47,977 nt of DNA from Terriglobales bacterium (GCA_035999525.1 DASYGR010000089.1:1-47977), one strand, 5' to 3'; counted from the first letter of the stretch, positions 12,499 through 47,814 are shown. Translations and numbers: made by a program. Notes: generated by a model not told the origin, from the sequence alone.

Positions 12499-13011
12499 AG
12501 ACCTTGCCTCGCATCCAAATCGAATTAAGAGCGCTCCGAAAGGTTTACCGCCCGGGCCAAGGTTACTGCCCGCGGCATGTTCGGCATTACCTTCTCAGAG
12601 CCTGCAAACAATTAAGCAAGGCAGTAGCCAATTGCAAGGTGGTTTAGATTGAGAAGACTGGGCGACTCTCGCGATTGGTGCGCAGGAGAGGCGGAGGCGA
12701 CAGAGGAAATCATTTTCCCTTGAGAGAAAACGATTCGAGCGCCTAACTGCGGGACGTAACGTTACGAAGGTAATCGTGCGGGAGAAAGACGGCGATGGCT
12801 GACAAAAGTGTTACCGACGATCAGAGAAAATCATTCGGATTGCCTCGCAGATGTAAGATTGACAATACAGACGGATCGCGGAACTTTAACGGGGTCATAG
12901 CTCGTCTGCGGGATCTAATTATTGCGCGGAGGTTATTCCCGTCGAACACTTTTATATTTGGAATCGCACGCCATTCGTCGAGATCCCAGAGTGTGCCCCG
13001 CAATACCGGAA

Positions 13012-14385: not shown

Positions 14386-14471
14386 CTCGCGATCGCCGCA
14401 AAGAAGCTGGATGAATTTGCATTTGTGTTGCGGTGATATCCGGTTTAGGTAAAGGGGAGAATTTTCCGCGG

Positions 14472-15647: not shown

Positions 15648-15704
15648 AAGGTACGTGGCGGAGCCCGAAAATTCGACGTTACGCAATCGGGTAGGTAGAG
15701 CTTC

Positions 15705-16676
15705 ATGCTGCGATTCGGAATATTCAAACCGGACCAATACGTACGGGCATGTGACGATAAGCGCATTCCGAGATCGCGCGTGTCTCTCGTATCCTATGAT
15801 CTTCTTAATGTCGGCGATGAGCCTACCGCAGAGCAGATCCAGATCTTCGAGGAAATAAGCCGTACGTTACGAACTTCAAACGGAACCTACCGGACTACCT
15901 TTTCCAACCGATTCCATGATTTGGACGATGTAGCAATCCGGTGGATAAAGAAATCTTTTTCCGGCGCCATTGAACTCCGAGTGCAAGACCGGGCTGCCTC
16001 TCATGCGTTGACTTCCCTGGAGTGGGCTTTAAAACTATTTCCACTTTTCCCCCTAGCCACATTTGAGGCGTCTGACAGTATGTTCAGCCTGGTTAAGCTG
16101 TCGTTGAATACTGGCGGGGCTTATGTTCTTGAGCCTCACGGCCACCCGCTTCAGTATATAAAGTGGCCTTTCGTTGTATCCCTGCAACGCCGGGAGTCCT
16201 GGCGATACCCGATCAACCGTCTCATTGCTGCTGGTGCGAAGCGGCGATTTAACCGGCTTCCGCTGCCCGAGGAGTGGATGGAGTCTACAAATGGAGCGAA
16301 TCATCGAGTCAGTACGATTCCCTTCGTTCATCCCAAAGCGGTGCAATACAGCAAAGAAAATGCCAGGTTCCAGTTGCAGACCCGATCTGTGTTTGAGCAT
16401 CTTCCCGAGTCGTGTCATGTATTACGTACCATGAACATCTTGAACGCGAGTTATTTCTCTGCCGACCAGCTGGTTGAAGGAATCAAGGCAACTTTCGACA
16501 GCCTTAAGCCGGGAGGCATCTGGATTGTTGGGCGAACGCTTGAAGAGGATTTCAGCAATCACGCCACCCTTTTCCTAAAGCAGCAGAGTGGTTGGAGCGT
16601 TTTGGAGCGCCTCGGACGGGGATCAGAAATCGAGGAATTAGCGCTTCGTGTTCCGCCGGAGAATTCGCGCATTTGA
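15705..16676 (+). CDS. Hypothetical protein with a CheR-like / class I SAM-methyltransferase-like C-terminal signature
   Basis: CHVLRTMNILNASYFSADQLVEGIKATFDSLKPGGIWIVGRTLEE resembles the CRNVxIYF...L.PGG.L.xG.sE block of CheR-type methyltransferases. The motif-I equivalent (RVQDRAASHALTSLEWA) is degenerate. Confidence 0.45.
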   Translation: MLRFGIFKPDQYVRACDDKRIPRSRVSLVSYDLLNVGDEPTAEQIQIFEEISRTLRTSNGTYRTTFSNRFHDLDDVAIRWIKKSFSGAIELRVQDRAASHALTSLEWALKLFPLFPLATFEASDSMFSLVKLSLNTGGAYVLEPHGHPLQYIKWPFVVSLQRRESWRYPINRLIAAGAKRRFNRLPLPEEWMESTNGANHRVSTIPFVHPKAVQYSKENARFQLQTRSVFEHLPESCHVLRTMNILNASYFSADQLVEGIKATFDSLKPGGIWIVGRTLEEDFSNHATLFLKQQSGWSVLERLGRGSEIEELALRVPPENSRI

Positions 16677-16696
16677 CGGGGCAACTCACAAACAAA

Positions 16697-18991
16697 ATGG
16701 AAGAAACTATTCCACATCACCTGAACGGTGAAGCGAGTCTAATTGATCCGCCTGAGGCATCTCTTCCTGGTGTCTTCCTGATGAATGACAGTTTTCAAAC
16801 GGGTGGCAGCGAACGTCAGTTCGTCGCGCTCGCTAAGTCTCTCGATTCATCTCTTTTCCGCGTGAATCTTGGCTGCATTCAGAGGCGAGGTGCGTTCCTT
16901 GAAGGGCTCGGGGAAGTGCCGCAGTTTGGATTGGGCGGCAGCCTGTATGGTTTGCAGTCAATCCGTGCACGGTTTAGGCTCCGCCGCCATTTACGTGCAT
17001 TGAATGTTGGCGTCGCCCACGCATTTGATTTCTACACAAACCTGACGCTGATTCCGGCAGCTCGGATCGCAGGAGTCCCGGTCGTGATCGGGAGCCAGCG
17101 TCAACTTGGCGACTTGCTAACTCCCGCGCAGTCCCGAGTTCAAATGGAAATGTTTCGCTGGAGCGACGCCGTGGTTTGTAACTCCCGCGCTACCGCGGAA
17201 ATACTTGTGAAACGAGGTCTTCGGGAAAGTCGCGTAGTGGTGATCGGAAACGGTCTCCATGAATCATGTTTCGCAGAAACCACGCCGGCGATTTCAAAAC
17301 AGCATGGAACTCTACGCGTAGGCATGATCGCAAGAATGAATAGCGTGGCGAAAGGCCACCGGAATTTTATTCGTGCAGCCGCGCAGATTCGGAACGAGCA
17401 TGAACGCGTGGAATTTGTCCTGGCTGGCGACGGTCCCTTGCGTAAAGAACTGGAGCGCTACGCAGATGAACTTGGTCTCGCTGGCAGAATTCTTTTTCTT
17501 GGAGACCGCCGGGACGTTCCAGCCGTACTGGCATCGCTCGATGTTTCCGTAGTGCCTTCGTCATCCGAGAGTTTATCCAATGTAATTATCGAGTCCATGG
17601 CAGCTGGTGTGCCAGTTGTGGCTAACCGGGTGGGTGGAAATCCGGAGTTGATAGATGAAGACCGCGGAATCTTGGTGAATGCTGGCGACGATCAAGCTTT
17701 GGCGAATGCGATCGAGCGATTACTGCGAGATGCCATGATGCGCCGGCATATCACTGAAAACGCGCAGCGGTTCGCAAAGGCAAATTTTACGATTGATCAA
17801 ATGCGACGCCGGCACGAGGCATTGTATTTCGAATTGCTTGAACAAAAGAGCTGGCGCCGTGGTGCACATGGCTTTAAGCGCTCCTCCAAAGTGCAGCGGA
17901 AACGGGTGCGCGTGGGAATCGTCGCTGCATCACTACGTTACGTTGGCGGGCAGGCTGTTCAAGCAGACTTATTGCTGCGAAACTGGCGGAACGATCCCGA
18001 GATCGAAGCCACTCTTATTCCGATTGATCCTGCCTTTCCTCGCGGACTTGCATGGGTGGAACGCTTCCCATTACTCCGCACTATTGTGCGTGAGCCCGCG
18101 TATCTACTAGCGCTTTGGCGGGAATTGAAAAAGGCTGACGTGGCGCATATCTTCTCAGCGTCTTATTGGTCATTTCTAATCGCGCCGGTGCCGGCCTGTC
18201 TTATGGCGCGGGCGCTAGGGAAAAAGGTTCTCATTCATTACCACAGCGGAGAGGCGAGAGATCATCTTCGCCGCTTTCGAACCACAGTTCCGGTTTTGAA
18301 GAAAGCTGATGCCCTGATAGTTCCGTCTGGATATCTGGTGGACGTTTTCCGGGAATTCGGATTGAGCGCAAAAATCGTCCCCAATTTCGTGGACACATCA
18401 CAATTTTCGTTTCGTCTCAGAAAGCCTTTACGCCCTCATCTCGTGTGCACCCGAGGCTTCCATCGGTATTACGGAATTGATGTGGTCGTGCACGCTTTCG
18501 CGGAAATACAACAAGCCTTTCCGGACGCGAGTCTGGACCTCGTGGGTGGGGGACCTCTGGAAACCGAAATCCGGCTTTTGGTAAGGCAATTAGGTATTAC
18601 CGGCATAAATTTTGCCGGGGTGGCATCACGGGATCAAATCGGACGATATTATGAGCGCGCTGACATTTTTATTAATGCTTCCCGCCTGGACAATATGCCA
18701 GTCTCTATCCTCGAAGCATTCGCATCCGGGACGCCGGTCATCAGCACTGCTCCTGAGGGCATGCGATATCTTATTGACCACGAGCGCACCGGATTGCTTT
18801 CAGAGCCAGGCAACCCTCAAACTCTGGCACAAAATGTTATTCGTGTGTTAAACGATTCTGAATTGGCGTCACGATTAGCCGTCAATGCGCATGAGGAGTT
18901 GCAACGCTATTCGTGGGAAGTAGTTCGGAAGCAATGGCTGGACGTCTATTATTTGTTAGGTAGAGAAACCTCGCCGAGCGGACAACGTTGA
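16697..18991 (+). CDS. Tandem GT4-GT4 fusion glycosyltransferase (two complete Glycos_transf_1-type modules)
   Basis: Module 1 spans about 16697..17850. It has NDSFQTGGSERQ and an EX7E motif, ESLSNVIIE, followed by AAGVPVVA. Module 2 spans about 17905..18991. It has RVGIVAASLRYVGGQA and DNMPVSILE (DX7E), followed by ASGTPVIS. ATG 16697 lies 20 nt after the previous stop. The track ORF start at 16592 overlaps the upstream gene. Confidence 0.85.
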   Translation: MEETIPHHLNGEASLIDPPEASLPGVFLMNDSFQTGGSERQFVALAKSLDSSLFRVNLGCIQRRGAFLEGLGEVPQFGLGGSLYGLQSIRARFRLRRHLRALNVGVAHAFDFYTNLTLIPAARIAGVPVVIGSQRQLGDLLTPAQSRVQMEMFRWSDAVVCNSRATAEILVKRGLRESRVVVIGNGLHESCFAETTPAISKQHGTLRVGMIARMNSVAKGHRNFIRAAAQIRNEHERVEFVLAGDGPLRKELERYADELGLAGRILFLGDRRDVPAVLASLDVSVVPSSSESLSNVIIESMAAGVPVVANRVGGNPELIDEDRGILVNAGDDQALANAIERLLRDAMMRRHITENAQRFAKANFTIDQMRRRHEALYFELLEQKSWRRGAHGFKRSSKVQRKRVRVGIVAASLRYVGGQAVQADLLLRNWRNDPEIEATLIPIDPAFPRGLAWVERFPLLRTIVREPAYLLALWRELKKADVAHIFSASYWSFLIAPVPACLMARALGKKVLIHYHSGEARDHLRRFRTTVPVLKKADALIVPSGYLVDVFREFGLSAKIVPNFVDTSQFSFRLRKPLRPHLVCTRGFHRYYGIDVVVHAFAEIQQAFPDASLDLVGGGPLETEIRLLVRQLGITGINFAGVASRDQIGRYYERADIFINASRLDNMPVSILEAFASGTPVISTAPEGMRYLIDHERTGLLSEPGNPQTLAQNVIRVLNDSELASRLAVNAHEELQRYSWEVVRKQWLDVYYLLGRETSPSGQR

Positions 18992-34964: not shown

Positions 34965-36026
34965 ATGTCGGCCCCCGGTTCCCGTTTTGTCAAAGCTTGC
35001 AGATCCGAGGCAGTTGATCGGACGCCTGTGTGGTTTATGCGGCAGGCGGGGCGCTACATGGCCGAATATCGCGCCCTCCGGAAGAAATACTCTCTAATTG
35101 AAATCTGCAAGAAGCCCGAACTGGCTGCGGGAGTCACGATCACCGCGGCCGAAGCGTTGGGTGTGGATGCGGCAATTATTTTTGCCGACCTGCTGCTCCC
35201 TCTTGAAGTCATGGGCCTGCCATTCCACTTCTCCATAGGCGAAGGTCCCGTGATTGAGAAGCCGTTACGCAGCAAACGTGATATTGGGCGCCTTCAAACA
35301 AATCGAGCGGCCGATCTGGGGTATGTTTCCGAAGCCATCGCCTTGGTGTGCAAACACTTTGGAACCTCACTGCCCGTGATTGGTTTTTGCGGAGCGCCTT
35401 TCACCCTTGCCAGCTACATGATTGAAGGTGGTGGCTCCCGCAGCTATCTCAATACCAAGAACATGATGCACTCCAGTTCCGCGTGGGACGAACTCATGCA
35501 AAAACTCGTGAAGGTTGTTTCCGAATACGCGGCGCAGCAAGTGCGAGCAGGCGCGGACGCAATTCAGGTCTTCGATAGCTGGGTTGGGTGCTTAAGTGTC
35601 GAGGATTATCGCGACTACGTGTTGCCTCGCACCTCTGAACTCATTCATAAATTGCAGAGCAACGGCGTCCCTATCATTTATTTTGGAACTGACAGCACGG
35701 CCTTATTGCCTTGGATGAAGAAGACGGGGGCCGATGTGATTGGACTTGATTGGCGGGTTCCGCTTGATGAAGGATGGCGCAGTCTGGATTTTAAAGGCGC
35801 GGTGCAAGGCAATCTTGATCCAGTTCTTCTCTTTGCGGATTGGAAGTTGCTGAAGTCGCGGGCCACTGGGATTTTGGAACTGGCGGCCGGACGACCGGGA
35901 CATATTTTTAATCTTGGTCACGGCATCCTTCCCGAGACTCCCGTTGAGAACGTGAAGGCACTGACAAAATTCATTCAAGAGACGCCAGTACAGAGTCTTA
36001 GCCGGCATCCTAAGGAGTCGAAATAA
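34965..36026 (+). CDS. hemE: Uroporphyrinogen decarboxylase
   Basis: It contains the conserved DRTPVWFMRQAGRYMAEYR motif, GFCGAPFTLASYMIEGG and NLGHGI. GAGAGG lies upstream of the ATG. Confidence 0.95.
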   Translation: MSAPGSRFVKACRSEAVDRTPVWFMRQAGRYMAEYRALRKKYSLIEICKKPELAAGVTITAAEALGVDAAIIFADLLLPLEVMGLPFHFSIGEGPVIEKPLRSKRDIGRLQTNRAADLGYVSEAIALVCKHFGTSLPVIGFCGAPFTLASYMIEGGGSRSYLNTKNMMHSSSAWDELMQKLVKVVSEYAAQQVRAGADAIQVFDSWVGCLSVEDYRDYVLPRTSELIHKLQSNGVPIIYFGTDSTALLPWMKKTGADVIGLDWRVPLDEGWRSLDFKGAVQGNLDPVLLFADWKLLKSRATGILELAAGRPGHIFNLGHGILPETPVENVKALTKFIQETPVQSLSRHPKESK

Positions 36027-36027
36027 T

Positions 36028-36972
36028 TTGTCGTCTTCAAAACAAAAGGCTGTGATGCTTCTAGCTCATGGAAGCCCGGATTCGGTGGAAGACGTTCCGG
36101 AATTCCTACTGCAAGTGACGCGCGGGCGGGCGCTCCCGCCCGAGGTGGTCGAGGAAGTAAAGCACAGGTACGAATTGATAGGACGCTCTCCCCTGACTGA
36201 GCTGACTATGCGGCAAGCGGAACTGCTATCGGCTGAAGTCGATCTGCGGGTGTATGTGGGAATGCGAAACTGGAAGCCTTTCATTGCCGACACGCTGAAG
36301 GGAATGGCGAAAGACGGTGTTGAACACGCCATCGTGATCTGCCTGGCGCCCCAGAATTCCCGCACCAGCGTGGGCTTGTATCGCTCCGCGCTCGGTCTTG
36401 AAAGCGATCTTCCGTTTAGCGTGGACTTTGTCGAATCCTGGCACGATCATCCTTTGCTCGTCAAAGCCTTCGCGGAAAAACTTTCAGCAGGATTGGCGAA
36501 GGCTCGCGCGGAAAACGGAAGCAGTGTTCCGGTGATCTTCACGGCGCACAGCGTACCGAAGCGCACCATTCTCGAAGGCGATCCCTACGAGCAACAAGCG
36601 AAAGAAACTGCGGAGTTGGTTGCAGCCGAAGCCTCGCTTGCTCGAGAAGATTGGGCATTCGCATTTCAGAGCCAGGGAATGTCAGGCGGCCCGTGGCTCG
36701 GGCCAACGGTTGAAGAATGCATACTCGCACTGAAGGCTCGCGGCCATAGCGGAGTATTTGTTCAGCCCATCGGGTTTCTGTGTGATCACGTAGAAGTTTT
36801 ATTCGACATTGATATCGCGTTCAGAAAGTTTGCGGATGCCGAAGGCATGCCGCTTTGGCGCGCGGGATCTTTGAACGAATCGCCGTTATTGACGGTATCT
36901 CTTGCGGAAATGGTACGGTCGCGCATTGCAAATGCAGCGAACCGCCTCTCCGCTTTCATCCCAGCAAACTGA
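36028..36972 (+). CDS. hemH: Ferrochelatase (proto- or coproporphyrin ferrochelatase)
   Basis: It contains LLAHGSP, FTAHSVP and FLCDHVEVLFDID. The TTG start at 36028 lies 10 nt after AAGGAG and 1 nt after the hemE stop. Confidence 0.9.
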   Translation: MSSSKQKAVMLLAHGSPDSVEDVPEFLLQVTRGRALPPEVVEEVKHRYELIGRSPLTELTMRQAELLSAEVDLRVYVGMRNWKPFIADTLKGMAKDGVEHAIVICLAPQNSRTSVGLYRSALGLESDLPFSVDFVESWHDHPLLVKAFAEKLSAGLAKARAENGSSVPVIFTAHSVPKRTILEGDPYEQQAKETAELVAAEASLAREDWAFAFQSQGMSGGPWLGPTVEECILALKARGHSGVFVQPIGFLCDHVEVLFDIDIAFRKFADAEGMPLWRAGSLNESPLLTVSLAEMVRSRIANAANRLSAFIPAN

Positions 36973-37001
36973 TACTTCATTTCGAAACTCCGTTCAAAAC
37001 A

Positions 37002-38420
37002 ATGAAGCGCATTGCGATTATCGGCGGCGGGATTTCGGGGCTGTCTGCGGCTTTTACTCTGGAACGACAGCGACAGGCGGGACTGCCGCTCGAATTTGTG
37101 TTGTTTGAAACAAGTCCTCGTTTTGGGGGAGTGATTCTTACCGAGCGCATGGAGAATTGCACGGTCGAAGCTGGCCCCGATTCGTTTCTGACAGAGAAGC
37201 CATGGGCTTCTGAACTGTGCCAGGAACTTGGGATAGCCGATCAATTGATTGGATCGAATGACTTCCAACGGCGAACTTACATTTCAGTCAACGGAAAATT
37301 GATTCCAATACCCGACGGGCTCGCCTTTATGGTTCCCACCAAGCTGATGCCTGCTGCTCTTTCACCATTATTTTCTCTCCGCACAAAAATCAGAATGGCT
37401 AGGGAATGGTTCTACCGCCCGGGTGAAATTGGTGCCGACGAGAGTGTTGGTTCGTTTGTAAAACGCCATTACGGTGAGGAAATGGTCGAGCGTTTAGCCG
37501 ATCCGCTTCTTTCGGGGATATATGGAGGAGATGCGAGCGACCTCAGTTTGCGGGCCGTGCTGCCCCGTTTTGCGGACATGCAGGCGCGCAATGGCAGCCT
37601 GGGCAAAACGCTGATCGCAAATCGCAAAGAAGCAATGAACACGGTCGCGCGTCCCGTGTTTACAACGCTGAAAGACGGAATGCGGCAACTGGTTAGCACG
37701 ATCTTAAGTCACCTTTCCGCATCGCGTGTCCGTTCCAACAACGAAATCCGGTCACTGCAAGCGCGAGAGCGTGGATGGTTGGTCTCATCAAACGCGAATG
37801 TTGAGAATTTTGATGGGGTAATCATAACAATTCCGACGCACGCCGCGGCGAGACTTCTGGAGGATTCCCATCCGAAACTTGCGTCCGAGTTGCGGGACAT
37901 TCGCTATAGTTCCTCGGTCACGGTATCTCTTGTCTACGATGAAAAGGTCCGCGCAAATTTGCCTGAGGGCTTTGGATATCTGGTACCTCGGGCTGAGGGC
38001 AAAAGAGTTTTGGCCGCGACTTTTGTGCACAATAAATTCCCTAATCGCGCACCTGACGACCGCGCGTTGATCCGTTGTTTTTTGGGGGGAACTCGAGACG
38101 AGACGGTTCTCGATTTATCGGAGGATGAAATTTTAGGCATCATCCGGGCAGAACTCCGTCAGACTCTCCGCATTGAAGCCGAACCGCTTTTTGCGCGCGT
38201 TTATAAATGGAAAGCGGCAATGGCGCAATACAATGTCGGCCATCTCGAAAGGTTAGAACGGATCGAACGACTGCGCCTGAATGCTCCAGGCTTGTTCCTA
38301 GCGGGAAACGCCTACAAAGGCATCGGCATTCCTGACTGCGTACGTTCGGGCAAGGAGGCGGCGAGCCAAGCCATCGAGGCAGTGGGACTGGGTGATTTCA
38401 AGACTGTTGCAACTTCATAA
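37002..38420 (+). CDS. hemY: HemY-type FAD-dependent protoporphyrinogen/coproporphyrinogen III oxidase
   Basis: MKRIAIIGGGISGLSAAF is the dinucleotide-binding motif. The length and ...FLAGNAYKGIGIPDCV... are typical of HemY/PPOX. The track ORF start at 36855 overlaps hemH and is rejected. Confidence 0.9.
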   Translation: MKRIAIIGGGISGLSAAFTLERQRQAGLPLEFVLFETSPRFGGVILTERMENCTVEAGPDSFLTEKPWASELCQELGIADQLIGSNDFQRRTYISVNGKLIPIPDGLAFMVPTKLMPAALSPLFSLRTKIRMAREWFYRPGEIGADESVGSFVKRHYGEEMVERLADPLLSGIYGGDASDLSLRAVLPRFADMQARNGSLGKTLIANRKEAMNTVARPVFTTLKDGMRQLVSTILSHLSASRVRSNNEIRSLQARERGWLVSSNANVENFDGVIITIPTHAAARLLEDSHPKLASELRDIRYSSSVTVSLVYDEKVRANLPEGFGYLVPRAEGKRVLAATFVHNKFPNRAPDDRALIRCFLGGTRDETVLDLSEDEILGIIRAELRQTLRIEAEPLFARVYKWKAAMAQYNVGHLERLERIERLRLNAPGLFLAGNAYKGIGIPDCVRSGKEAASQAIEAVGLGDFKTVATS

Positions 38421-38540: not shown

Positions 38541-39353
38541 ATGAAACCGGCCATGACAACACTTGCATCGGTCCTGATGTTCGTCCTGTTGGGCTTGTGC
38601 CCGGCGGGGGCGCAGCAACAAGCCTCCCATGGCTCAGGCGATATGTCGAATACGGATATGTCGTCTCACGATATGTCGCATAACAATTCGGCCATGCCGG
38701 GGATGGCGGACACGAACAACGATGGAAGCGCATCCGCGATGCATGCGATGGAAGGCCACATGGACATGGGTCCACACATGGCAATGACGGCATTGCGCAA
38801 ACCGCAACCGGGCGATAAAGAAAGAGCCGACCAAATTGTGGAGGCAGCACGCAAGGTCGCCGAAAAGTATCGGGACTACAAACTTGCTCTGGCTGATGGG
38901 TTTAAGATTTTTTTACCCAACGTCCCGCAAAAGCAATATCACTTCACTAATTATTCATACGCCTTTGAAGCGAGAATGCGTTTCAATCCTGATCATCCAA
39001 CTTCATTGCTCTACCAAAAGAACGGCGACGGCTACAAGTTGATTGGAGTTATGTATACGGCTGCCAAGGACGCCAGTGAGGATGAGCTTGATTCACGCGT
39101 TCCTTTGAGCATTGCGCAATGGCACCGGCACGTCAATTTGTGTATGCCCCCGGCGGACAAGAAGAGCGAGGCAATTGGTCCGAATGCGAAGTTCGGATTG
39201 GCCGGATCTATTGCGTCCCAGGATGCCTGTGACGCCGCAGGCGGGAAATTTATTCCCCAAATTTTCGGATGGATGGTACATGTGTATCCATTCGAAAAAA
39301 ATCCAGAAGACGTGTGGTCGGTTGAGCGCCAGGCTCCCGGTCATATGGATTGA
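38541..39353 (+). CDS. Secreted protein with a Met/His-rich N-terminal region (putative metal, possibly Cu(I), binding)
   Basis: The signal peptide is MKPAMTTLASVLMFVLLGLCPAGA. Residues 30-82 hold 11 Met and 6 His (DMSNTDMSSHDMSHNNSAMPGM...AMHAMEGHMDMGPHMAM). A globular domain that I do not recognise follows. Confidence 0.65.
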   Translation: MKPAMTTLASVLMFVLLGLCPAGAQQQASHGSGDMSNTDMSSHDMSHNNSAMPGMADTNNDGSASAMHAMEGHMDMGPHMAMTALRKPQPGDKERADQIVEAARKVAEKYRDYKLALADGFKIFLPNVPQKQYHFTNYSYAFEARMRFNPDHPTSLLYQKNGDGYKLIGVMYTAAKDASEDELDSRVPLSIAQWHRHVNLCMPPADKKSEAIGPNAKFGLAGSIASQDACDAAGGKFIPQIFGWMVHVYPFEKNPEDVWSVERQAPGHMD

Positions 39354-39419
39354 TTCATTACTCTACGAACCATTTCCCGCAGCAGATGAAGTGTCACGCC
39401 CGTGTAGAATCGCCACTTG

Positions 39420-41099
39420 ATGGCGAATTCCTCTGAAGCTCTTGAACCAGGGCAAACCGGCGGGCTCTGGCAACGTATGCTGCGTCAGCTTCGCCCATCT
39501 CATCAGCACACCGCCTTTTCCGCCACCCTGCTCTTGATGACCACGGTATTGCTGTCGCGCCTCATCGGCTATGTGCGCGAGCTTTATGTAGCGTGGACTT
39601 TCGGAGCGGGAGTGCAGACGGACGCATTCTATGCCGGATTTACCATCCCAGACTTCTTAATGTACCTGGTCGCGGGTGGCGCAACATCCATCACGTTCAT
39701 TTCTATATACACGCGGTTTTTAACCGAGGACAAACAGCAAGATGCGCACGAGGCCTTTTCCGTCGTCATCACGGTCATGACGGCGATCCTGGGCGCTGGG
39801 GTCGTCTTGACGGAAATTTTTACGCCGCAAATCACTCACTGGTGGTTCGACAAATTCAATGCTGAGCAACTCCGGCTCTGTGTGCACATTACCCGGATTA
39901 TTTTGCCGACCCAGATATTCTTCTACATTGGCGGCGTGCTCTCGGCAGTTTTGTACTCTCGGCGACTTTTTCTGCTGCCCTCGCTGGGTCCCATACTGTA
40001 CAACGCGTTCATCATTGCAGGCGGAGTGTTGCTTTCGCGACGGATCGGTGCGTCGTCCCTGGCCTACGGCGCATTGGCTGGCGCGTTCTTCGGGCAGTTC
40101 GTACTTTACGCAATTGGCGCGGCGCGCACGGGAGCGCGCTACAGGATTTCTTTTGATGTGCACAATCCGGCATTTCGCGAATGGGTGCGGCTATCGGTGC
40201 CGCTGATGCTCGGACTCTCACTTGTTACCGTGGATGACTGGTTCATTCGCCGCTTTGCTTCAGGGGGCATCGGAGAGATCGCACGCTTGAGTTTCGCTAA
40301 GAAACTTTTCAATGTGCCGATCGCCATTCTGGGACAGGCAGTCAGCCAGGCTTCTTTACCTTTTTTTGCGCGGCTATTTAACGAGAAGCGGCTTCAGGAA
40401 CTGACCGACATCGTGAACGGCGCTGTGTATCGGACGGTGGCCATCTCGCTACTCGCGACAAGTTTCATGACGGCGGCGGCTCTCCCGCTTATTGATCTCG
40501 CTTACCGCCATGGCAGCTTCAATTTTTCCGATAGCAAAGAAACAGCGGTTTATTTTTTCTGGTTTTCCTTGTCACTGGTCTTCTGGTCGGCACAGGGATT
40601 GTATGCACGCGCATTTTATGCGGCCGGCAATACGCTGACGCCAATGGTCGCAAGCACGCTTATCACAATAGCTTCCTATCCCATGTACGCCGCACTTTAT
40701 CACAAGTATTCAGTTGTCGGTCTTGCGATCGCTTCCGATCTGGGCATCACCGCCAACTGTCTGGCTATGGCCATCTTGCTGAACCACCGTAAATTGATTC
40801 CGATCGCGCAATTGCCCTGGAGGGAATTAGGAAAGGCAACCATAACTGCGGTCATCGCGGGGATTTTGAGCTTTCAAATGGCTCGCACCGTGAGAATCAC
40901 TGGCAGCCGAGTCGCCGACGTTCGGGCAGTGGGTTTAATACTTGTCACCTGGGCGGGAGCAGTCGCGGCGGGTCTTTGGATCACTAGATCGAAATTGCTT
41001 CAGGAGCTGCGGCGGCGAAAAGGACCGATTTATCCCCGAGTAGCCGAACGACAACCGGAGAATCCAGTGGGGGCCTCGAACCATAGCGCCAAGTTGTGA
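39420..41099 (+). CDS. murJ: Lipid II flippase MurJ (MviN, MOP superfamily)
   Basis: About 14 TM segments are present. The N-terminus ...TLLLMTTVLLSRLIGYVRELYVAWTFGAGVQTDAFYAGFTIPDFL is the conserved MurJ signature. The start is TTG 39417 or ATG 39420. Confidence 0.9.
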   Translation: MANSSEALEPGQTGGLWQRMLRQLRPSHQHTAFSATLLLMTTVLLSRLIGYVRELYVAWTFGAGVQTDAFYAGFTIPDFLMYLVAGGATSITFISIYTRFLTEDKQQDAHEAFSVVITVMTAILGAGVVLTEIFTPQITHWWFDKFNAEQLRLCVHITRIILPTQIFFYIGGVLSAVLYSRRLFLLPSLGPILYNAFIIAGGVLLSRRIGASSLAYGALAGAFFGQFVLYAIGAARTGARYRISFDVHNPAFREWVRLSVPLMLGLSLVTVDDWFIRRFASGGIGEIARLSFAKKLFNVPIAILGQAVSQASLPFFARLFNEKRLQELTDIVNGAVYRTVAISLLATSFMTAAALPLIDLAYRHGSFNFSDSKETAVYFFWFSLSLVFWSAQGLYARAFYAAGNTLTPMVASTLITIASYPMYAALYHKYSVVGLAIASDLGITANCLAMAILLNHRKLIPIAQLPWRELGKATITAVIAGILSFQMARTVRITGSRVADVRAVGLILVTWAGAVAAGLWITRSKLLQELRRRKGPIYPRVAERQPENPVGASNHSAKL

Positions 41100-41107
41100 A
41101 GGGGACC

Positions 41108-43579
41108 CTACTGAGGTTCAAGGACGTCGTCCAACGTTACTTTCCCGCCGCGCGTTACCGTAACCACGTGATGAGCTGTCTTGTAGCCTGACAGAGTCAT
41201 GTCAACTACGTAAGTTCCGGGATTGAGATAAAAATCTACCGGCGAAAGTTTTTCCAGAAGCCGGCTGTTGACCGCGATTTGTGCGCCTTTAGGCTGAACC
41301 TTGATGCTGACGATTCCCATGCCAATGGGATCGTTGCTGCCGAAAAACTTCTTTATTTTTCCGACAGTTCTAATGTTGTCGGTATCGCCGAGCGCGATCA
41401 GGGTGGGCGAGTAATGAAAGGTCTGTCCAGGGGCCAGATTTGCGGTCGTGGTTTCATCCAGGTAGCCTGGCTTTTTCACAAGGAGAGTATGGCTGCCAGG
41501 CCTATCCAGCGAGATTTGGGCCGGGGTCACATGTCCGGTGTCTTTGCCGTCCACGAAGATGGAAGCGCCAACTGGAGCGCTCACAAAGAAGACCGTTGAT
41601 GGCAGCTGGTTGAAGTGAACCATAACCGTGGACTTGCCGCCGGAAATAGCATCTATGGTCCGAATTTCTGGAGCAAAACCGGCTTTGCTGATGTAAACAG
41701 TGTGTTGGCCCGGCGGCAGTCCCGAAATGTTGTACGGGGTTATCCAGCTCGGATCGCCTCGGCCATCAATTTGGATCTGTCCTCCGGCGGGGTTGGAATT
41801 CACCATTAACTGCGCCGGGATAACAACGGGCAACGGCTGGGGCGCTTCAACTTTTGCCTTGGCTTTCTTTTTCGCCGCAAACTTGCCTTTTACTGAAACA
41901 TCCGATGAGTCGTTGCTCGGCGACTCAGAAGCAATCGGTAACTGCATTGTTGATTGACGCACAGGCGAGCTCTGGCTGTTACTCGTGGTTGTGGATGCAC
42001 TGGCAACAGAGGATTCAATAGCTGTCCGAGACGTGCTCTGATCATCCGCACTGTCAGAGCGAATCCGAAGGGCAATGATGGCTGAAATTACCAAAATGAC
42101 GGCGACTGCTGCCCCGATCGAGTACAGGAACATCTTCGGCGGAGTCTTTTTAATCTCTACGACAGCTTTTCTTGCTATCTCCCGGACAGGCAGCGCCGCC
42201 GGAGCAGTTTCAGATTTCGCATAAGCACGCGCTGATGGCTCATCCAGCAATATATCCTCGCTACCGCTTGAGGACGCCGGTAGCGGAGGCGGAGGTGAGA
42301 CATACACTTCTTTCAGCGGCGGCAGCTCATCAATTTCCGAGAAGCTGCGGCTCGGAGTGACGCCAGCCTTCCTGCTTTCATCCATCATCGGATCCACAGC
42401 AATTTTCGGCGCCTTAACCTCAGGTTCGAGAGTAGCTGTCGACATTTTCGCCTCAGGTTTTATGACGGCGTCAATGGAGGCTTTGATACAGGTACTGATA
42501 AATTGCTGCGAAGAATCCATCGTTGCCGCCTTCAGAGACTGAAGGGTAGGCGCTGCTGTTTGCGGTGTACCTGCACCTGCGGCTGCAGCGGCCGTCCGGG
42601 CATTTGCAGGAGCCTGGACTTCCACCCGGGGAGCAATTGAAGGAGCACTCTGTGCCTCGCGCTTTTGCTGTGGTTCGGTGGCCACCGGAGCGGGCGGTCT
42701 GCCCTGCGAGGCTTTGACGGCTGCGGCGGGTTGCATCGTCTTGTTGGCCGCTACTGTCTTTACCGGATTGTTCTTGCACTTTTCGAGGTCATTGATGAGT
42801 TCCTGGCCCGATTGATATCGGTCAGATGGGACCTTGGCCAGCGACTTCATGATCACGTCACTCAGAGCCGGATCAATTTTGGGATTAATTTCGCAGGGCG
42901 GTGCAGGCATCATCTCCAGCACCGATTGCTGCACTTGATCCGGATCTTCGCCGTTAAAGGCTTTCTGCTGGGTGACCATCTCATACACGATCGCGCCCAG
43001 ACTGAATAGATTCGAGCTTGCGTCGAGCGGTTGACCCTGGATCTGCTCGGGAGACATGTAATGAAGAATCTTGGGGATGCCCGGACAAAATTCAGCCGCA
43101 GAAACCCCCATCATCGAAACTCCGAACCCAAGCATCTTGACGATGCCGTCCCACTGAACCATCACTTTTCCCGGTTCGAGACTGTAGTGAAGAACTTTGT
43201 TTACCCGCGCATGGTCCAGGCCTTGGCAACATTGACGCGCAATGTCCTGAACATCCCAAATCGAAAAAACCTCTTTCCTCTCCAGCATGGTTTCGATGCT
43301 GTTACCCTGCACGTATTCCATGGTGGCGCAGAACTTGCCCTCAATCTCGCCGGCTCCAAAAAGCATTGCGATGTTATGGGTATTGAGAAGTTTTGAACTT
43401 TCGGCTTCTTCAAGAATGCGCTTTACGACCGGCGCAGCGTTCGCTCCGAAAGGCTTCAAATCCACGACTTTCAAGGCGACGATCTGTCCACCCACGGAAT
43501 CGCAAGCTTTGTTCACCGATCCGGTGAAGGAGCGCGAAATTTCAGCTTGAATTTCGAAGCGACCAATTTTAGTGGACAT
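41108..43579 (-). CDS. Ser/Thr-kinase-like protein with degenerate catalytic motifs (predicted pseudokinase), one TM segment and three C-terminal PEGA domains
   Basis: The kinase fold is recognisable from VALKV, YMSPEQ, SLGAIVYEM and PSDRY. However it has HYSLEPGK instead of HRDLKPxN and GFG instead of DFG. After a Pro/Ala-rich linker and a TM segment (LYSIGAAVAVILVISAIIAL) come three units of the type V.S.P.GA.I.vDG...G.TP......pG.H.v...k.GY. Confidence 0.85.
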   Translation of the reverse strand: MSTKIGRFEIQAEISRSFTGSVNKACDSVGGQIVALKVVDLKPFGANAAPVVKRILEEAESSKLLNTHNIAMLFGAGEIEGKFCATMEYVQGNSIETMLERKEVFSIWDVQDIARQCCQGLDHARVNKVLHYSLEPGKVMVQWDGIVKMLGFGVSMMGVSAAEFCPGIPKILHYMSPEQIQGQPLDASSNLFSLGAIVYEMVTQQKAFNGEDPDQVQQSVLEMMPAPPCEINPKIDPALSDVIMKSLAKVPSDRYQSGQELINDLEKCKNNPVKTVAANKTMQPAAAVKASQGRPPAPVATEPQQKREAQSAPSIAPRVEVQAPANARTAAAAAGAGTPQTAAPTLQSLKAATMDSSQQFISTCIKASIDAVIKPEAKMSTATLEPEVKAPKIAVDPMMDESRKAGVTPSRSFSEIDELPPLKEVYVSPPPPLPASSSGSEDILLDEPSARAYAKSETAPAALPVREIARKAVVEIKKTPPKMFLYSIGAAVAVILVISAIIALRIRSDSADDQSTSRTAIESSVASASTTTSNSQSSPVRQSTMQLPIASESPSNDSSDVSVKGKFAAKKKAKAKVEAPQPLPVVIPAQLMVNSNPAGGQIQIDGRGDPSWITPYNISGLPPGQHTVYISKAGFAPEIRTIDAISGGKSTVMVHFNQLPSTVFFVSAPVGASIFVDGKDTGHVTPAQISLDRPGSHTLLVKKPGYLDETTTANLAPGQTFHYSPTLIALGDTDNIRTVGKIKKFFGSNDPIGMGIVSIKVQPKGAQIAVNSRLLEKLSPVDFYLNPGTYVVDMTLSGYKTAHHVVTVTRGGKVTLDDVLEPQ

Positions 43580-43794
43580 TTTCTTCGAGCCTCGTGCAAG
43601 AACGTCGTCGCATTAAAACGCAGGACTACAACTGTGAGGAGGAGTACAGCTAGGATAATGCGGAGTAACAAATCAAGGGAGTTACGAAAGTGACTCAACC
43701 AGCGAGGCGGGGTTACGTTAGAAACCACACCAGTTAACGCGAGACAATCCGAAGGTCGGCGACAGGGTCAGGTTCAGCGTAGTTCAGGCAGGTC

Positions 43795-46377
43795 CTACTT
43801 CAATCCGGTCACGACATAGGCTTCCGAGAGCTCCCGCCCATATGTATACGCGTATGCCGTGTTACCGGCGGAAAAGTTGGGCGGACCAACATTATTGATT
43901 CCCGCAGCCATTTCTGCGCCGAAGGTTCTCCACGGCTCTATCTTTCCCGTCACTATATTCACCTTGAGCACCTTAGCTACCGTCTCGCTGGCCCGCGTTT
44001 GGAACGCATACACCGACCCGGTATCGGGCGACCAGCCAATCACCAAATAGGTCGAGTCCAGTCCGGGGATTAGACGAATGTCTCGTCCTTCAAGCTGCCA
44101 GATTCCCCACTTTCCATCGGGACCCAGGACAGCAGTACTCGCTCCATTTGGCGAAGGGTGTACGCCGGCAACACCTTCAGGCGTAATGGGCTTTGAGTCG
44201 CCACTGCTTATATCAATGAGGTAGTCCCGCGCAGCATGTCCCGGTTCGATGCCCTGGGCAAGTAAGTGTTTCGCGTCCGGCAGCCACCGAACTGCGGAAT
44301 AGCTCACAGCATCGTGCGTAAGTTGCCTCGCCTCACCTGCTCCCGTAGGCACAAGGTTCAAAGGTCCGCCTCTTGGGAGCTTGCTAATCACCCACTTCGC
44401 ATCGGGTGAAATTGCGAGGGCGAGCCCTTCGCCGACGCGCGCTGGAGGCGAACCATCCGTATCACGCACGAAGACGGTATAGTTGGGGCCGCCACCATTT
44501 CCTTCCTCTTCGAACACAATCTTGCGGCCATCGCGGCTTATGTCGCGCACAATGGACCATCCGAACCATCCCAGTTCGCGCTCTTCTTTTGCGCCAGGCG
44601 CGAGACCCCGAATCCCAATACGATCCTGATGAGTGATCATCAGCGCCGTCCCGCTCCGCATATCTTCCAGCCACATCCCTCCGGGTACATTCGTGATTGC
44701 CCGCTGTTTTCCTGAAAGAGTCACGGCATTCGGATTCGTGGCACTACTGTTACTGGCTGACGTAAACCATATCTCGTCACCCCCAGGAGACCATAGAATT
44801 CCCTCGATCGTTTCCCACCCAGAGGATAGTTTTTTTTCTTTGCCGTCGCCATCCGTGCTGATCACCGCGATTGACCCCTCATCATCACCACTCGGATTCT
44901 CATGATCGGCGAAAGCTACCCACTTACCGTCTGGCGAAATTCTGGGTGCGCTGATCCAGTTAATACTGTCAAACAGTACCTTACCTATTGGGTATTCAAG
45001 CCTCCAGTGATTATTTTCCGGGACGTACCGGACGATCGCCATACTTTCGCCGTCAGCCGCCCAATCTGCGTCCTGCACGTTGTTTAGCACTTCTCGCGGT
45101 GTGCCGCCACTCAGGGGCACCCGAGCCAGCGTTCCGGTTTTCGCGTAACCACCAAAAGTCACGGTATTGAGGCGAACCGCCAGCTCCCCATTCTTGGAAA
45201 TCGCAAGCAGCTCTGCATCTTTCAACCCCAATTCGCGCGCCCCTGGGTCGTCGGTGCGTGACATGTAAAGCTGGTATCCGCCTCCCTCCCACGACGCGCT
45301 ATAAACGATGCTCCCATCCGGGGTAAATCGCGCATTGCCGATGGAGCCAGTGCGAAAAGTGATTTGTTGATACTGGGCCAGCGCGGCGCGACCACTGCCT
45401 TTGCCGAGCCACCACCCGAGGCCGAGCATTATCAATGCGAGCACTACGCCAACCGCGATCCCGGGCAGTAGCCAATTATGTGACCTTGCCGATATGGGCG
45501 GCACAATCTTCGACGTGCTGCCGGAAATTCCAGAAAGATGTTCGAGATCAAAGGCGATATCACTCGCGGAATGGAAGCGTCCCTCAGGCTTCTTCTCCAG
45601 ACAGTGCTGCACAATGCGCTCGAGCGCCGGAGAAACATTGCGATTGGTTTCGTTCAACTCGGGAGGGTCTTCCTTCAAGATCGCACTCATCGTGTCCGCG
45701 GGAGTGTCTCCATGGAATGCCCGCTTGCCCGAGAGCATCTCGTAAAGAATTGCCCCAAAACTAAAAATGTCAGACCGCGTATCCAGAGCAATTCCGCGCA
45801 CTTGCTCGGGCGACATGTAGCCGGCTGTCCCCATCACCGACCCCGCCTCGGTGCCGTGAGTGACTGTTGGCAGCGAGGAATGGGCCGTGGGTTCGTTCTG
45901 GGTCAGCTTTGCCAGACCAAAGTCTAAAATCTTGATACGCCCATCATTCGTGAGAAACAGATTCTCCGGCTTCAGATCACGATGAATGATTCCCTTTTCA
46001 TGGGCTGCCGCCAGTCCATGCGCAATTTGCAAGGCATAGTCCAATGCCTTCCGCAGCGCGATGGGACCGCTGCGCAAGCGCTGGCGGAGAGTCTCTCCTT
46101 CGAGCAGTTCTGAGACAACGTAAGGCGAGTTCTCGCTGGTGCCGATATCGAACACGGCAAGAATATTCGGATGGTTCAGGGCAGCGGTGGCGAGGGCCTC
46201 CTGCTCAAAGCGGCGTAACCGGTCGGAATCAAGCGATAGCGCCTGCGGCAAAATCTTGACCGCGACCTCGCGTTTGAGACGAGAGTCGCGAGCGCGATAG
46301 ACTTCACCCATTCCGCCCGCACCGAGCAGAGCGACAATCTCGTACGGTCCGAGTTTAGTGCCCGAAGCAACAGCCAT
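43795..46377 (-). CDS. Ser/Thr protein kinase with a TM segment and an extracytoplasmic TolB-like (PD40/WD40-like) beta-propeller
   Basis: The catalytic motifs are intact: [44 protein letters not shown] and [13 protein letters not shown]. The TM segment is [21 protein letters not shown]. Repeated SPDG-type blades follow ([45 protein letters not shown]). ATG 46377 is preferred over TTG 46389. Confidence 0.88.
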
Positions 46378-46671
46378 GTGTGGGCGCAATTATAACTTGA
46401 GCCACGTTGTGCGACGAATGGGAATCCTCTGAATGCTTCTTCGGATCAAACAATGACATTTGTCATCACGCTTACGTGACGATCTCCACTACTTTGTTGC
46501 CCGCCAATCGGTGACGATCATATTGGAAGCGGTGGTTGTCCACTTTAACGGCATCGGCTATTCTGGTTGACAATCATTCGGGTTAACCGTCCATTCGTAG
46601 GCGATAATCGGGGCGGCTTTTTGGATTTCCTGAGCTTGTAGCAGTAGTGAGTCGGTCACTGGAGTTTTCCT

Positions 46672-47814
46672 ATGACACTGGTCAGTTTCGTTCGCAAGAA
46701 CTCATTCCGCAATAAGCGCCGTAGCATTTTGACCGTACTTAGCATTGGTGGCTCGCTGCTTCTGCTGACTTTCCTGATTACGATCTGGCGCAGCTTTTAT
46801 GACAGCAAGCCGACCGAGATGTCCGCACAGCGCCTGATCGTTCGCAATAAGGTTTCACTCGTTTTCAATTTGCCGAGCTCATACCGCCAGAAGATTCAAG
46901 CCATCCCAGGGGTGAAAGAAGTGGTAAACCAGCAATGGTTTGGTGGGCAATATATAGACGACAAGCCGGAACACTACTTCGCCCAGTTCGGAACGGATCC
47001 GCAGGAACTGTTCAAGGTGTACCCGGAATTTAAGATTCCCGCCGATCAACTGGCAGCGTGGCAGCGCGATCGGGCCGGCGCAATCGTGGACGTGGGATTG
47101 GCCAACAAGTTTCACTGGAAAATTGGTGACCGGCTCAACATTACAGGCAAGATTTTCCCTGTCAACCTGGAGTTGACGATTCGGGGAATTTTCACGCCGC
47201 CCGATCCAACCCAGTCAATCTACTTTAATAAGGACTATATAGACGAAGGTTTCCCCAATCTAAAAGGCAGCGATGGATTCTTCGCGGTTTTAGCCGATTC
47301 ACCGGAATCTGTTCCCAAGGTCGCTGGAGCGATTGACGAACAGTTTCGCAATTCTGATCGCGCCACAAAGACTGAGAGCGAGCACGCTTTTCAGCTGGGC
47401 TTTATTGGGATGCTGGGGAATATCAAGGCCTTTATCATGAGCATCTGCTTGGCGGTGGTCTTTACCATCCTGCTCGTGTCTGCGAATACGATGGCGATGT
47501 CCATTCGTGAACGCACGCGGGAAGTTGCTGTGTTAAAGACTCTGGGTTTTACTCGAAACAGTATTCTCGGTTTATTCGTCGGCGAGGCGGTTTCACTTTC
47601 GCTTGTAGGCGGCCTGATAGGAACGCTGCTCTGCTTTGCCATCGTGACGGGGATGGCAAGCCAGGGAGGCTATTTCACTGGAATGAAGGTCACTGCACTC
47701 ACCATGGCGGCAGCGCTGCTCATAGCGGCGGTCGTGGGGTTCGTCAGTTCGTTTGTCCCGTCGTATCATGCTGCGAAGGTCAATATTGTGGATGGCTTAC
47801 GTCACATCGGGTAA
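46672..47814 (+). CDS. ABC transporter permease, FtsX/MacB-like (4 TM segments with a large periplasmic domain)
   Basis: SFRNKRRSILTVLSIGGSLLLLTF is the N-terminal TM segment. A periplasmic domain of about 200 aa follows, then the FtsX core ...MSIRERTREVAVLKTLGFTRNSILGLFVGEAVSLSLVGG. Confidence 0.85.
   Translation: MTLVSFVRKNSFRNKRRSILTVLSIGGSLLLLTFLITIWRSFYDSKPTEMSAQRLIVRNKVSLVFNLPSSYRQKIQAIPGVKEVVNQQWFGGQYIDDKPEHYFAQFGTDPQELFKVYPEFKIPADQLAAWQRDRAGAIVDVGLANKFHWKIGDRLNITGKIFPVNLELTIRGIFTPPDPTQSIYFNKDYIDEGFPNLKGSDGFFAVLADSPESVPKVAGAIDEQFRNSDRATKTESEHAFQLGFIGMLGNIKAFIMSICLAVVFTILLVSANTMAMSIRERTREVAVLKTLGFTRNSILGLFVGEAVSLSLVGGLIGTLLCFAIVTGMASQGGYFTGMKVTALTMAAALLIAAVVGFVSSFVPSYHAAKVNIVDGLRHIG

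Follow-up and report, generated by a model that had tools for sequence, protein, structure and literature searches.

We analysed a stretch of 47,977 nucleotides from a Terriglobales bacterium (GCA_035999525.1, DASYGR010000089.1:1-47977; the whole stretch is called the window hereafter), in which an open reading frame (ORF) on the minus strand encodes an 823-aa protein with a kinase-like domain and three PEGA domains. Sequence analysis confirmed this protein as a predicted single-pass membrane pseudokinase, and we termed its family PSK-A. The gene lies between a convergent gene for the lipid II flippase MurJ and, on its own strand, a gene for a canonical Ser/Thr kinase, beyond which a divergent ABC exporter operon begins (Table 1). 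In the ORF list it starts at the first ATG after the upstream stop codon, and because its homologues (766-897 aa) align over the full length of the protein, both its start and its end are credible.

The N-terminal domain matched the Pfam family Pkinase (PF00069) at aa 19-256 (E=5e-30, 105.2 bits compared with a gathering cutoff of 31.7), and three stretches matched PEGA (PF08308; E=1e-30, 105.8 bits compared with a gathering cutoff of 20.8). AlphaFold2 (AF2) modelling with the family alignment yielded a kinase fold for aa 1-270 with a predicted local distance difference test score (pLDDT) of 80-95, for which the best Foldseek matches were PknB, PknA, Stk1 and PknE, with a template modelling score of ~0.8. 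The linker that follows was predicted to be disordered, with pLDDT values below 50 at aa 272-392 and 432-460, and a juxtamembrane helix was predicted at aa 465-478, in a region with the invariant residues A469, A472, E475, T479, P480, P481 and F484. Because the sole hydrophobic segment, aa 485-507, is preceded by a flank charge of +4 and followed by one of −3 (positive-inside), the kinase fold is predicted to be cytoplasmic and the PEGA modules to lie outside. The model of the ectodomain (pLDDT 92.8) consists of three β-sandwich modules and one long loop. A Foldseek search of the ectodomain against PDB returned generic adhesin, pilin and carboxypeptidase-regulatory β-sandwiches and no clue to a ligand, and the titles and abstracts of the PEGA-domain literature yielded no paper on PEGA function or ligand.

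A residue-level alignment to solved structures of Mycobacterium tuberculosis PknB showed that HRDVKPAN of PknB is replaced by HYSLEPGK and DFG by GFG. We counted the residues at the catalytic positions in 120 database homologues and used 120 canonical PEGA kinases for comparison (119 for the linker motifs). The HRD Asp (position 133) is Ser in the query and is absent from all 120 homologues, which have Ser (77), Thr (41) or Ala (2) instead; it is also absent from every resolved motif among the 80 genomic loci described below. The Lys of HRDxK (position 135) is Glu in 120/120 homologues, and the catalytic-loop Asn (position 138) is Lys in 119/120. At position 151, the DFG Asp is likewise missing from 119 of the 120 sequences, with Gly in 105, Ser in 11, Ala in 3 and Asp in 1. 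The αF Asp that anchors the catalytic loop, present in 120/120 canonical sisters, is Asn in 119/120 homologues (position 190). Compared with PknB and the canonical sisters, five catalytic residues are thus replaced in the query (Ser133, Glu135, Lys138, Gly151 and Asn190), and two of the residues that took their place, Glu135 and Lys138, are in turn invariant at the frequencies given. With two residues of the triad VAIK-Lys, HRD-Asp and DFG-Asp missing, the query is a pseudokinase by the bioinformatic definition.

Degradation extends to the Gly-rich loop, which follows the pattern [AST]-x-S-x-x-[GS], with the first Gly changed to Ala, Ser or Thr, the second to Ser, and the third kept in 76/120 homologues. 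The P+1 'GT' has become Leu172-His173, and the activation loop contains no conserved Ser or Thr, having lost the activation-loop Thr of the canonical sisters; the activation segment is of full length (28 residues, 151-178). The residues that were kept include Lys37 (120/120), αC Glu58 (119/120) and the hinge Glu-Tyr-Val (120/120), together with the β2 Val, β3 Ala, β7 Met, HRD-His and DFG-Phe, and the motifs YMSPEQ and SLGAIVYEM are present in the query. Judged by residue identities rather than by geometry, no bulky residue fills the adenine pocket. On these alignments, the PSK-A domain is devoid of the residues for canonical Mg-ATP phosphotransfer: the αF anchor Asp, the catalytic base and the two metal ligands are all missing.

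An earlier note, made by a model from the sequence of the window, had described the gene as a pseudokinase fused to three PEGA domains, and this description is borne out by sequence, family conservation and structure prediction. The Gly-rich loop ISRSFTGSV (aa 14-22) and the kinase-fold motifs VALK, YMSPEQ and SLGAIVYEM were found as it had reported, in agreement with the PF00069 match and the PknB alignment, and the codons it had assigned to LHYSLEPGK (aa 130-138) and GFG (aa 151-153) are exact. The note had suggested examining whether orthologs conserve the HYS and GFG changes, and the catalytic loss recurs in 120/120 homologues and in the 80 loci. Its argument that the changes are no lineage-wide quirk also holds: the adjacent kinase (43795..46389, minus strand) does keep its catalytic motifs and YMSPEQ, and canonical kinases of the same architecture exist in the same order. 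The loss of the αF Asp (Asn190), the change of the P+1 GT to LH and the invariance of Glu135 and Lys138 go beyond what the note had described.

Searching 5.8 billion proteins, we found full-length homologues down to ~45-50% identity, all of them with Pkinase and PEGA, in Terriglobales and other Acidobacteriia. All homologues come from metagenome-assembled genomes or metagenomes, and in public databases they are annotated as 'serine/threonine protein kinase' or 'PEGA domain-containing protein'. In species-representative genomes, a scan found at least 584 stretches encoding a relative; the loci analysed here are the best 80 of these. One orthologue (L072, contig DATKEV010000060.1) lies on a contig labelled Candidatus Udaeobacter (Verrucomicrobiota), through either mis-binning or horizontal transfer, and all other loci are from Acidobacteriota. 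Terriglobales are a major group of soil bacteria, and PSK-A appears to be widespread among them.

Pairwise dN/dS values between close relatives were 0.03-0.05 for the pseudokinase domain, 0.05-0.07 for the PEGA region, 0.17-0.20 for the linker and 0.16-0.27 for the transmembrane helix and spacer (aa 485-590). Because the value for the pseudokinase domain is the lowest, constraint on the protein is strongest in its 'dead' kinase domain. PSK-A is a selected pseudokinase family and not a product of decay. The chance that the gene is a decaying kinase gene or an artefact of sequencing or assembly is negligible: its frame is intact and every homologue examined has the same substitutions, and we consider this explanation refuted by the family-wide residue pattern together with the dN/dS values.

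Using a profile search of 1.84 billion cluster representatives and motif extraction, we identified three groups that share the architecture of a Pkinase domain, a transmembrane helix and three PEGA domains. PSK-A is characterized by VALK, the αC Glu, HxSLEPxK and [GS][FY]G; the canonical group by LGKGAMGVV, VALK, HRD[IV]KPAN and DFG; and a second pseudokinase group (P0142, P0148, P0159, P0191 and others) by VA[IL]R, HxNLxPxN and D[FY]G, with the β3 Lys changed to Arg, the HRD Asp to Asn and a variable αC Glu. In a neighbour-joining tree of kinase domains, PSK-A is monophyletic (20/21 leaves in its clade), next to a small intermediate group with 'HRRLQPAN + GFG', and the gene appears to be inherited vertically. 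Some representatives contain tandem kinase-like domains (P0262, P0252, P0232 and P0256); three pseudokinase domains (VLIR / HTLLGPSR / GFG) were counted in P0262 (963 aa), and of the six kinase-like domains in P0252 (2573 aa), four are degenerate.

The canonical PEGA receptor kinases (e.g., P0165 and P0291), which occur in Terriglobales, Ca. Koribacter and Ca. Angelobacter, are paralogues of PSK-A with the same architecture and 51 shared invariant positions, with 34-39% identity between the kinase domains and 32-40% between the ectodomains. Unlike PSK-A, they have intact GxGxxG, HRD[IV]KPAN, DFG and αF Asp and lack the PSK-A linker motifs. In 5/5 independent assemblies, a gene for an FHA-GAF-class III nucleotide cyclase (~545 aa) follows the canonical PEGA kinase gene 6-116 bp downstream on the same strand, which looks like a conserved two-gene module that links a kinase to cyclic-nucleotide signalling in Terriglobales, Koribacter and Angelobacter.

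Contrasting PSK-A with its 120 canonical sisters, we obtained 35 family-specific invariant positions, with a dense cluster on helix αD and in its vicinity (T97, M98, R101, E103, F105, S106, I107 and W108). This αD patch is a candidate interaction surface, and it and L172/H173 were the two genome-scan patterns that proved specific for PSK-A. The linker contributes two further family markers, ELPP, of the motif RSFSEIDELPPLKEVY (120/120 in PSK-A compared with 0/119 in canonical sisters), and DPMM, within DPMMDE (114/120 compared with 0/119).

The linker also bears on a different explanation, in which PSK-A would be a phospho-adaptor like M. tuberculosis MviN: Hanks kinases would phosphorylate the linker or juxtamembrane region, FHA proteins would be recruited, and the kinase fold would serve as a docking substrate only. 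The linker is long, disordered and rich in Ser and Thr, with invariant Ser412, Ser414 and Thr479; FHA effectors exist in the lineage, beside the canonical PEGA kinases; and MviN provides a precedent (PMC12599244). However, neither the FHA-GAF-cyclase nor any other FHA gene was found in the window or in the 80 PSK-A loci, and the kinase adjacent to PSK-A in the window is not conserved. FHA domains read phospho-Thr and prefer a hydrophobic or acidic residue at +3, but the sole invariant linker Thr lies in KKTPPK, without such a residue. This explanation would also leave the strict conservation of the nucleotide pocket, Glu135 and Lys138 without a reason, and we regard it as improbable.

Table 1. 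Coordinates of the PSK-A gene, its parts, its neighbours and the sister modules (positions refer to the window unless a locus is named; AF2, AlphaFold2)
Feature	Position	Strand	Evidence
PSK-A gene, whole	41108..43579	-	ORF list; 120 full-length homologues; 80 species-level loci
Pseudokinase domain, cytoplasmic, aa 1-270	42770..43579	-	Pfam, AF2, Foldseek, dN/dS
Degraded Gly-rich loop ISRSFTGSV, aa 14-22	43514..43540	-	Motif counts
β3 Lys37 (VALK), kept	43469..43471	-	120/120
αC Glu58, kept	43406..43408	-	119/120
Invariant patch on and around helix αD, aa 97-108	43256..43291	-	Contrast with 120 canonical PEGA kinases
Catalytic loop LHYSLEPGK, aa 130-138	43166..43192	-	PknB alignment and family counts
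GFG for DFG, aa 151-153	43121..43129	-	PknB alignment and family counts
Asn190 for αF Asp	43010..43012	-	Family versus canonical sister counts
Cytoplasmic linker, mostly disordered, aa 271-484	42128..42769	-	AF2 pLDDT, dN/dS
Linker motif DPMMDE, aa 396-401	42377..42394	-	Family versus sister counts
Linker motif RSFSEIDELPPLKEVY, aa 411-426	42302..42349	-	Family versus sister counts
Juxtamembrane helix, ends in KKTPPKMF, aa 465-484	42128..42187	-	AF2 and invariant residues
Single transmembrane helix, N-in/C-out, aa 485-507	42059..42127	-	Hydrophobicity and flank charge
Ser/Thr/Lys-rich extracytoplasmic spacer, aa 508-590	41810..42058	-	Sequence
PEGA β-sandwich module 1, aa ~589-655	41615..41815	-	Pfam PEGA and CarboxypepD_reg; AF2
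PEGA β-sandwich module 2, aa ~661-723	41411..41599	-	Best Pfam PEGA stretch (664-726); AF2
PEGA β-sandwich module 3, aa ~755-819	41123..41317	-	Three PEGA stretches in Pfam; AF2
MurJ lipid II flippase, convergent	39417..41099	+	Pfam MurJ 9e-65
Upstream non-coding block ACTTTCGTAACTC...TATCCT, 73-112 bp before the PSK-A ATG	43652..43691	-	28 orthologous intergenic regions
Canonical Ser/Thr kinase with PD40/TolB-like β-propeller	43795..46389	-	Pfam; synteny
Distal conserved block, GTGGAGATCGTCA ... GATGACAAATGTCAT palindrome	46453..46492	-	28 orthologous intergenic regions
First FtsX/MacB-type permease of the divergent ABC exporter operon	46672..47814	+	Pfam FtsX, MacB_PCD; NCBIfam; synteny
Canonical PEGA kinase and cyclase pairs	L081:8001-11775; L082:8001-11730; L084:8001-11895; L086:4001-7643; L087:4001-7789		

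An unbiased clustering of flanking ORFs showed that the most conserved neighbour of PSK-A is the divergent ABC operon, which was found in 42/71 to 43/66 loci with enough flank (~60-65%) and encodes 2-3 FtsX/MacB-type permeases, an HlyD/RND-type adaptor and a LolD/MacB-like ATPase. Downstream of PSK-A, no gene cluster occurred in more than 23/71 loci. The intergenic region between FtsX and PSK-A is 307-657 bp long in 28 loci and contains conserved DNA blocks, including the palindrome TGACAAATGTCA, which is likely an operator for some regulator; no small ORF in this region was common to more than 8 of the 28 loci. The block closest to PSK-A (43652..43691) likely represents the gene's own promoter or operator region. 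A promoter and terminator scan returned nothing above the shuffled background.

In the window, the conserved blocks are split: the proximal one lies directly upstream of the PSK-A ATG, and the distal one lies beyond the canonical kinase gene, next to FtsX. Because the blocks lie on either side of 43795..46389, they indicate insertion of this kinase gene into a pre-existing intergenic region between divergent genes, which makes it a recent neighbour. This bears on the possibility that PSK-A is a dedicated allosteric partner or substrate of the adjacent β-propeller kinase, a partnership that the earlier note had implied. The two genes share a strand and are separated by 215 bp, a scan of that strand found no terminator-like site between them, and a homologous propeller kinase is located near the orthologue in L023 and L036, in arrangements that differ. 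However, the propeller kinase adjoins PSK-A only in L001-L003, which are at least 86% identical, and another kinase of any type occurs within 8 kb in 11/80 loci and in none of the remaining 69. Given this and the insertion, such a partnership is very unlikely, and the suggestion in the note did not hold. A different, lineage-specific association, distinct from the kinase pairing in the window, was seen in L008:10541-13627, L012:10491-13442 and L058:12832-15789, where a canonical kinase of ~1000 aa (HRDLKPAN) is encoded on the opposite strand downstream of PSK-A; it converges directly on PSK-A in L008 and L012 and is ~2.6 kb away in L058.

On the other side, the MurJ gene (Pfam 9e-65) ends 8 bp from the PSK-A stop codon. 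Together with the precedent of mycobacterial MviN, a fusion of MurJ and a pseudokinase, this arrangement would fit a split version of that fusion, in which PSK-A regulates the convergent MurJ. However, MurJ adjoins PSK-A in 3/80 loci only (L001-L003), and in the remaining 77 it is missing from the flanks. MviN is also degraded differently, with VALT, no HRD or DFG, a deletion in the activation loop and an occluded pocket, and its pseudokinase was not in the top 50 Foldseek matches. We consider regulation of MurJ highly improbable and rejected the analogy on the grounds of the adjacency, which tblastn limited to L001-L003.

An anti-phage defence context was set aside as unlikely. The PADLOC hidden Markov models of kinases (PD-T4-6, Mad6 and PglW) matched PSK-A at 1e-50, but because the canonical neighbour scored far higher on the same models (5e-90), the PSK-A match probably reflects generic kinase homology, and the surroundings are housekeeping genes (hemEH with a protoporphyrinogen-oxidase-like gene, MurJ and the ABC exporter). 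The haem cluster (34965-38420, plus strand) encodes uroporphyrinogen decarboxylase, ferrochelatase and an Amino_oxidase-family flavoprotein, which is probably a protoporphyrinogen or coproporphyrinogen oxidase; because ORF 3 of this cluster overlaps ORF 2 as listed, its true start is probably further downstream. The next gene (38541-39353, plus strand) encodes a protein of 270 aa whose N-terminus resembles a signal peptide and which contains a Met/His-rich stretch (...DMSSHDMSHNNSAMPGM...HAMEGHMDMGPHMAM). This protein had no Pfam match, is conserved only in L001-L003 and could be a periplasmic binder of metal, possibly copper. Further away, at 9778-18991, envelope and polysaccharide genes code for a membrane protein of the Wzy_C (O-antigen ligase-like) type, a protein of 906 aa in which the Big_2 domain occurs ten times, and a double GT4 glycosyltransferase of 799 aa.

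PSK-A most likely belongs to the functional class of scaffolds, sensors or allosteric partners. Our favoured explanation, held with moderate confidence, is a non-catalytic receptor pseudokinase that probably binds nucleotide without metal, as STRADα does, and acts through protein contact. Because the adenine pocket, the hinge, the Lys-Glu pair, the HRD-His and the DFG-Phe are kept and Lys138 occupies the site of the metal-binding Asn, we infer that the domain most likely still binds nucleotide in a cation-free, STRADα-like manner. With the three PEGA modules predicted to face the periplasm and the PknB-like fold the cytoplasm, a nucleotide-occupied, active-like conformation would serve as a switch or docking platform. 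Its output would pass through protein-protein contacts, for which the αD surface and the linker motifs DPMMDE and RSFSEIDELPPLKEVY are candidate sites. One candidate partner would be the canonical PEGA receptor kinases found in this order, with their coupling to the FHA-GAF-cyclase, in a pairing like that of HER3 and EGFR; the other would be the MacB-type ABC exporter, which diverges from a shared conserved intergenic region.

Several observations weigh against this proposal. The Gly-loop has lost two of its three glycines, a change that could reduce ATP binding or eliminate it, and according to a review, nucleotide binding is not reliably predictable from sequence (PMC4718504). With regard to the partners, the co-occurrence of PSK-A and canonical PEGA kinases was seen at the level of the order, the synteny with the ABC operon is absent in ~35-40% of the loci, and its divergent, non-operonic layout could reflect inherited gene order. 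The signature of the PknB back-to-back dimer, the interface positions of which we take to be Arg7, Asp76 and Leu33, is not kept at two of the three: Arg7 is retained, Asp76 has become Gly75 and Leu33 has become Gly or Ser, and the position equivalent to Asp76 is Asp in 99% of the canonical sisters. A heterodimer formed through a PknB-type back-to-back interface is not obviously favoured by these sequences.

The main rival to a non-catalytic receptor would be an atypical enzyme, since a plain scaffold would hardly account for the invariance of Glu135 and Lys138. In such an enzyme, the catalytic loop would be rewired, with Glu135 as a base or nucleotide ligand and Lys138 in place of the metal, and would carry out Mg-independent phosphotransfer, AMPylation or glutamylation. 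Consistent with this, Glu135, Lys138, Lys37 and Glu58 are invariant around an unobstructed adenine pocket, which exceeds the obvious needs of a scaffold, and the constraint on the protein is highest in the kinase domain. There are precedents in CASK, which is active without cations (PMC4718504), and in SelO and SidJ, which are repurposed kinase folds (PMC12599244). However, CASK retains the catalytic Asp and an intact Gly-rich loop, both of which PSK-A has lost along with the P+1 'GT' and the αF Asp, no Ser or Thr is conserved in the activation loop of PSK-A, and the similar substitutions of STRADα are compatible with pure ATP binding and no catalysis. We therefore consider an atypical enzyme unlikely, and its more specific form, in which the rewired site (Glu135 and Lys138 with the Lys37-Glu58 pair and the open pocket) would constitute a PEGA-controlled metal-independent or non-phosphotransfer enzyme, e.g., for AMPylation or nucleotidylation, quite unlikely.

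Among known systems, PknB-type kinases (PknB and PknA of M. tuberculosis and Stk1 of Staphylococcus aureus) were the top matches of PSK-A in both sequence and fold, at 4e-28 in phmmer, with a template modelling score of ~0.8 and 25-27% identity. Common to both are an N-terminal cytoplasmic kinase fold, a linker, one transmembrane helix and extracytoplasmic repeats, and PSK-A has kept the VAIK Lys, the αC Glu, the HRD-His, the DFG-Phe and APE. Unlike PknB-type kinases, it has replaced the catalytic residues and two Gly-loop glycines, lacks the activation-loop Thr and has an ectodomain of PEGA instead of PASTA domains.

The pattern of substitutions is analogous to that of human STRADα, in which the HRD Asp is also Ser. 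This likeness is confined to the pattern, since STRADα is eukaryotic and soluble and has no specific homology to PSK-A beyond the kinase superfamily; at DFG+2, PSK-A has Gly and STRADα has Arg. STRADα has basic residues in place of the metal ligands, with His200 at the catalytic-loop Asn and Arg215 in the GLR that replaces DFG, and it binds ATP without cations, which favours an active-like state that activates LKB1 (PMC4718504).

Similar to PSK-A, MviN (ActPs3) of M. tuberculosis combines a cytoplasmic pseudokinase with an extracytoplasmic domain in one bacterial membrane protein. It lacks the VAIK Lys, has a deletion in the activation loop and an aromatic-filled pocket, binds neither ATP nor Mg and is fused to MurJ (PMC12599244). 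In contrast, PSK-A has kept the Lys, a full-length activation segment and canonical pocket residues, and MurJ is a separate gene. EssB/YukC of type VIIb secretion resembles PSK-A as a single-pass protein with an N-terminal cytoplasmic pseudokinase, and EssB is a non-catalytic scaffold; however, EssB shows degradation of its Gly-loop and activation loop as well as of all three motifs, and it belongs to Firmicutes and to type VII secretion loci. No secretion-system genes are present at the PSK-A locus.

According to a 2025 review (PMC12599244) and the atlas on which it builds, described in a preprint, more than 300,000 bacterial Ser/Thr kinases fall into 42 families, seven of which are pseudokinases (ActPs1-3, GLW, DLHK, CP1 and DYD). 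These seven have Hanks-type folds with degraded catalytic motifs, and many have a C-terminal transmembrane helix (PMC12599244). As described in the preprint, the VAIK Lys is substituted in all seven, and because this Lys is kept in 120/120 PSK-A sequences, PSK-A is none of them. Neither PEGA nor Acidobacteria is mentioned in the two sources. The atlas draws on RefSeq and UniProt, whereas the PSK-A homologues are of metagenomic origin. Its canonical family 'Myxo2' has a related C-terminal domain and may correspond to the canonical PEGA sisters, and PSK-A sequences may sit unremarked in one of the 35 canonical atlas families, such as 'Myxo2'. A literature search for pseudokinases with PEGA found no relevant paper, and PSK-A is apparently a large, well-defined family that is undescribed in the literature found, in a field in which bacterial pseudokinases are almost unexplored experimentally (PMC12599244).

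PSK-A is distinct in that the ATP-binding Lys, the Lys-Glu pair and the adenine pocket are kept while the residues for phosphotransfer and metal binding have been swapped for other invariant ones. It also stands out by a complete receptor architecture and by canonical paralogues of the same architecture that are wired to an FHA-GAF-cyclase. The family therefore offers a natural bacterial test case for pairs of receptor kinases and pseudokinases, comparable to HER3/EGFR and BIR2/BAK1 in eukaryotes, for cation-independent nucleotide binding as a switch outside eukaryotes, and for what PEGA domains sense. If PSK-A were an enzyme, it would represent a new catalytic solution in a bacterial kinase fold; if it were a scaffold only, without unusual chemistry, it would simply add another family to the known pseudokinases and be of moderate interest. 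That receptor kinases can have pseudokinase paralogues is already established, and what is new here is a distinct conserved active-site pattern in a bacterial receptor pseudokinase.

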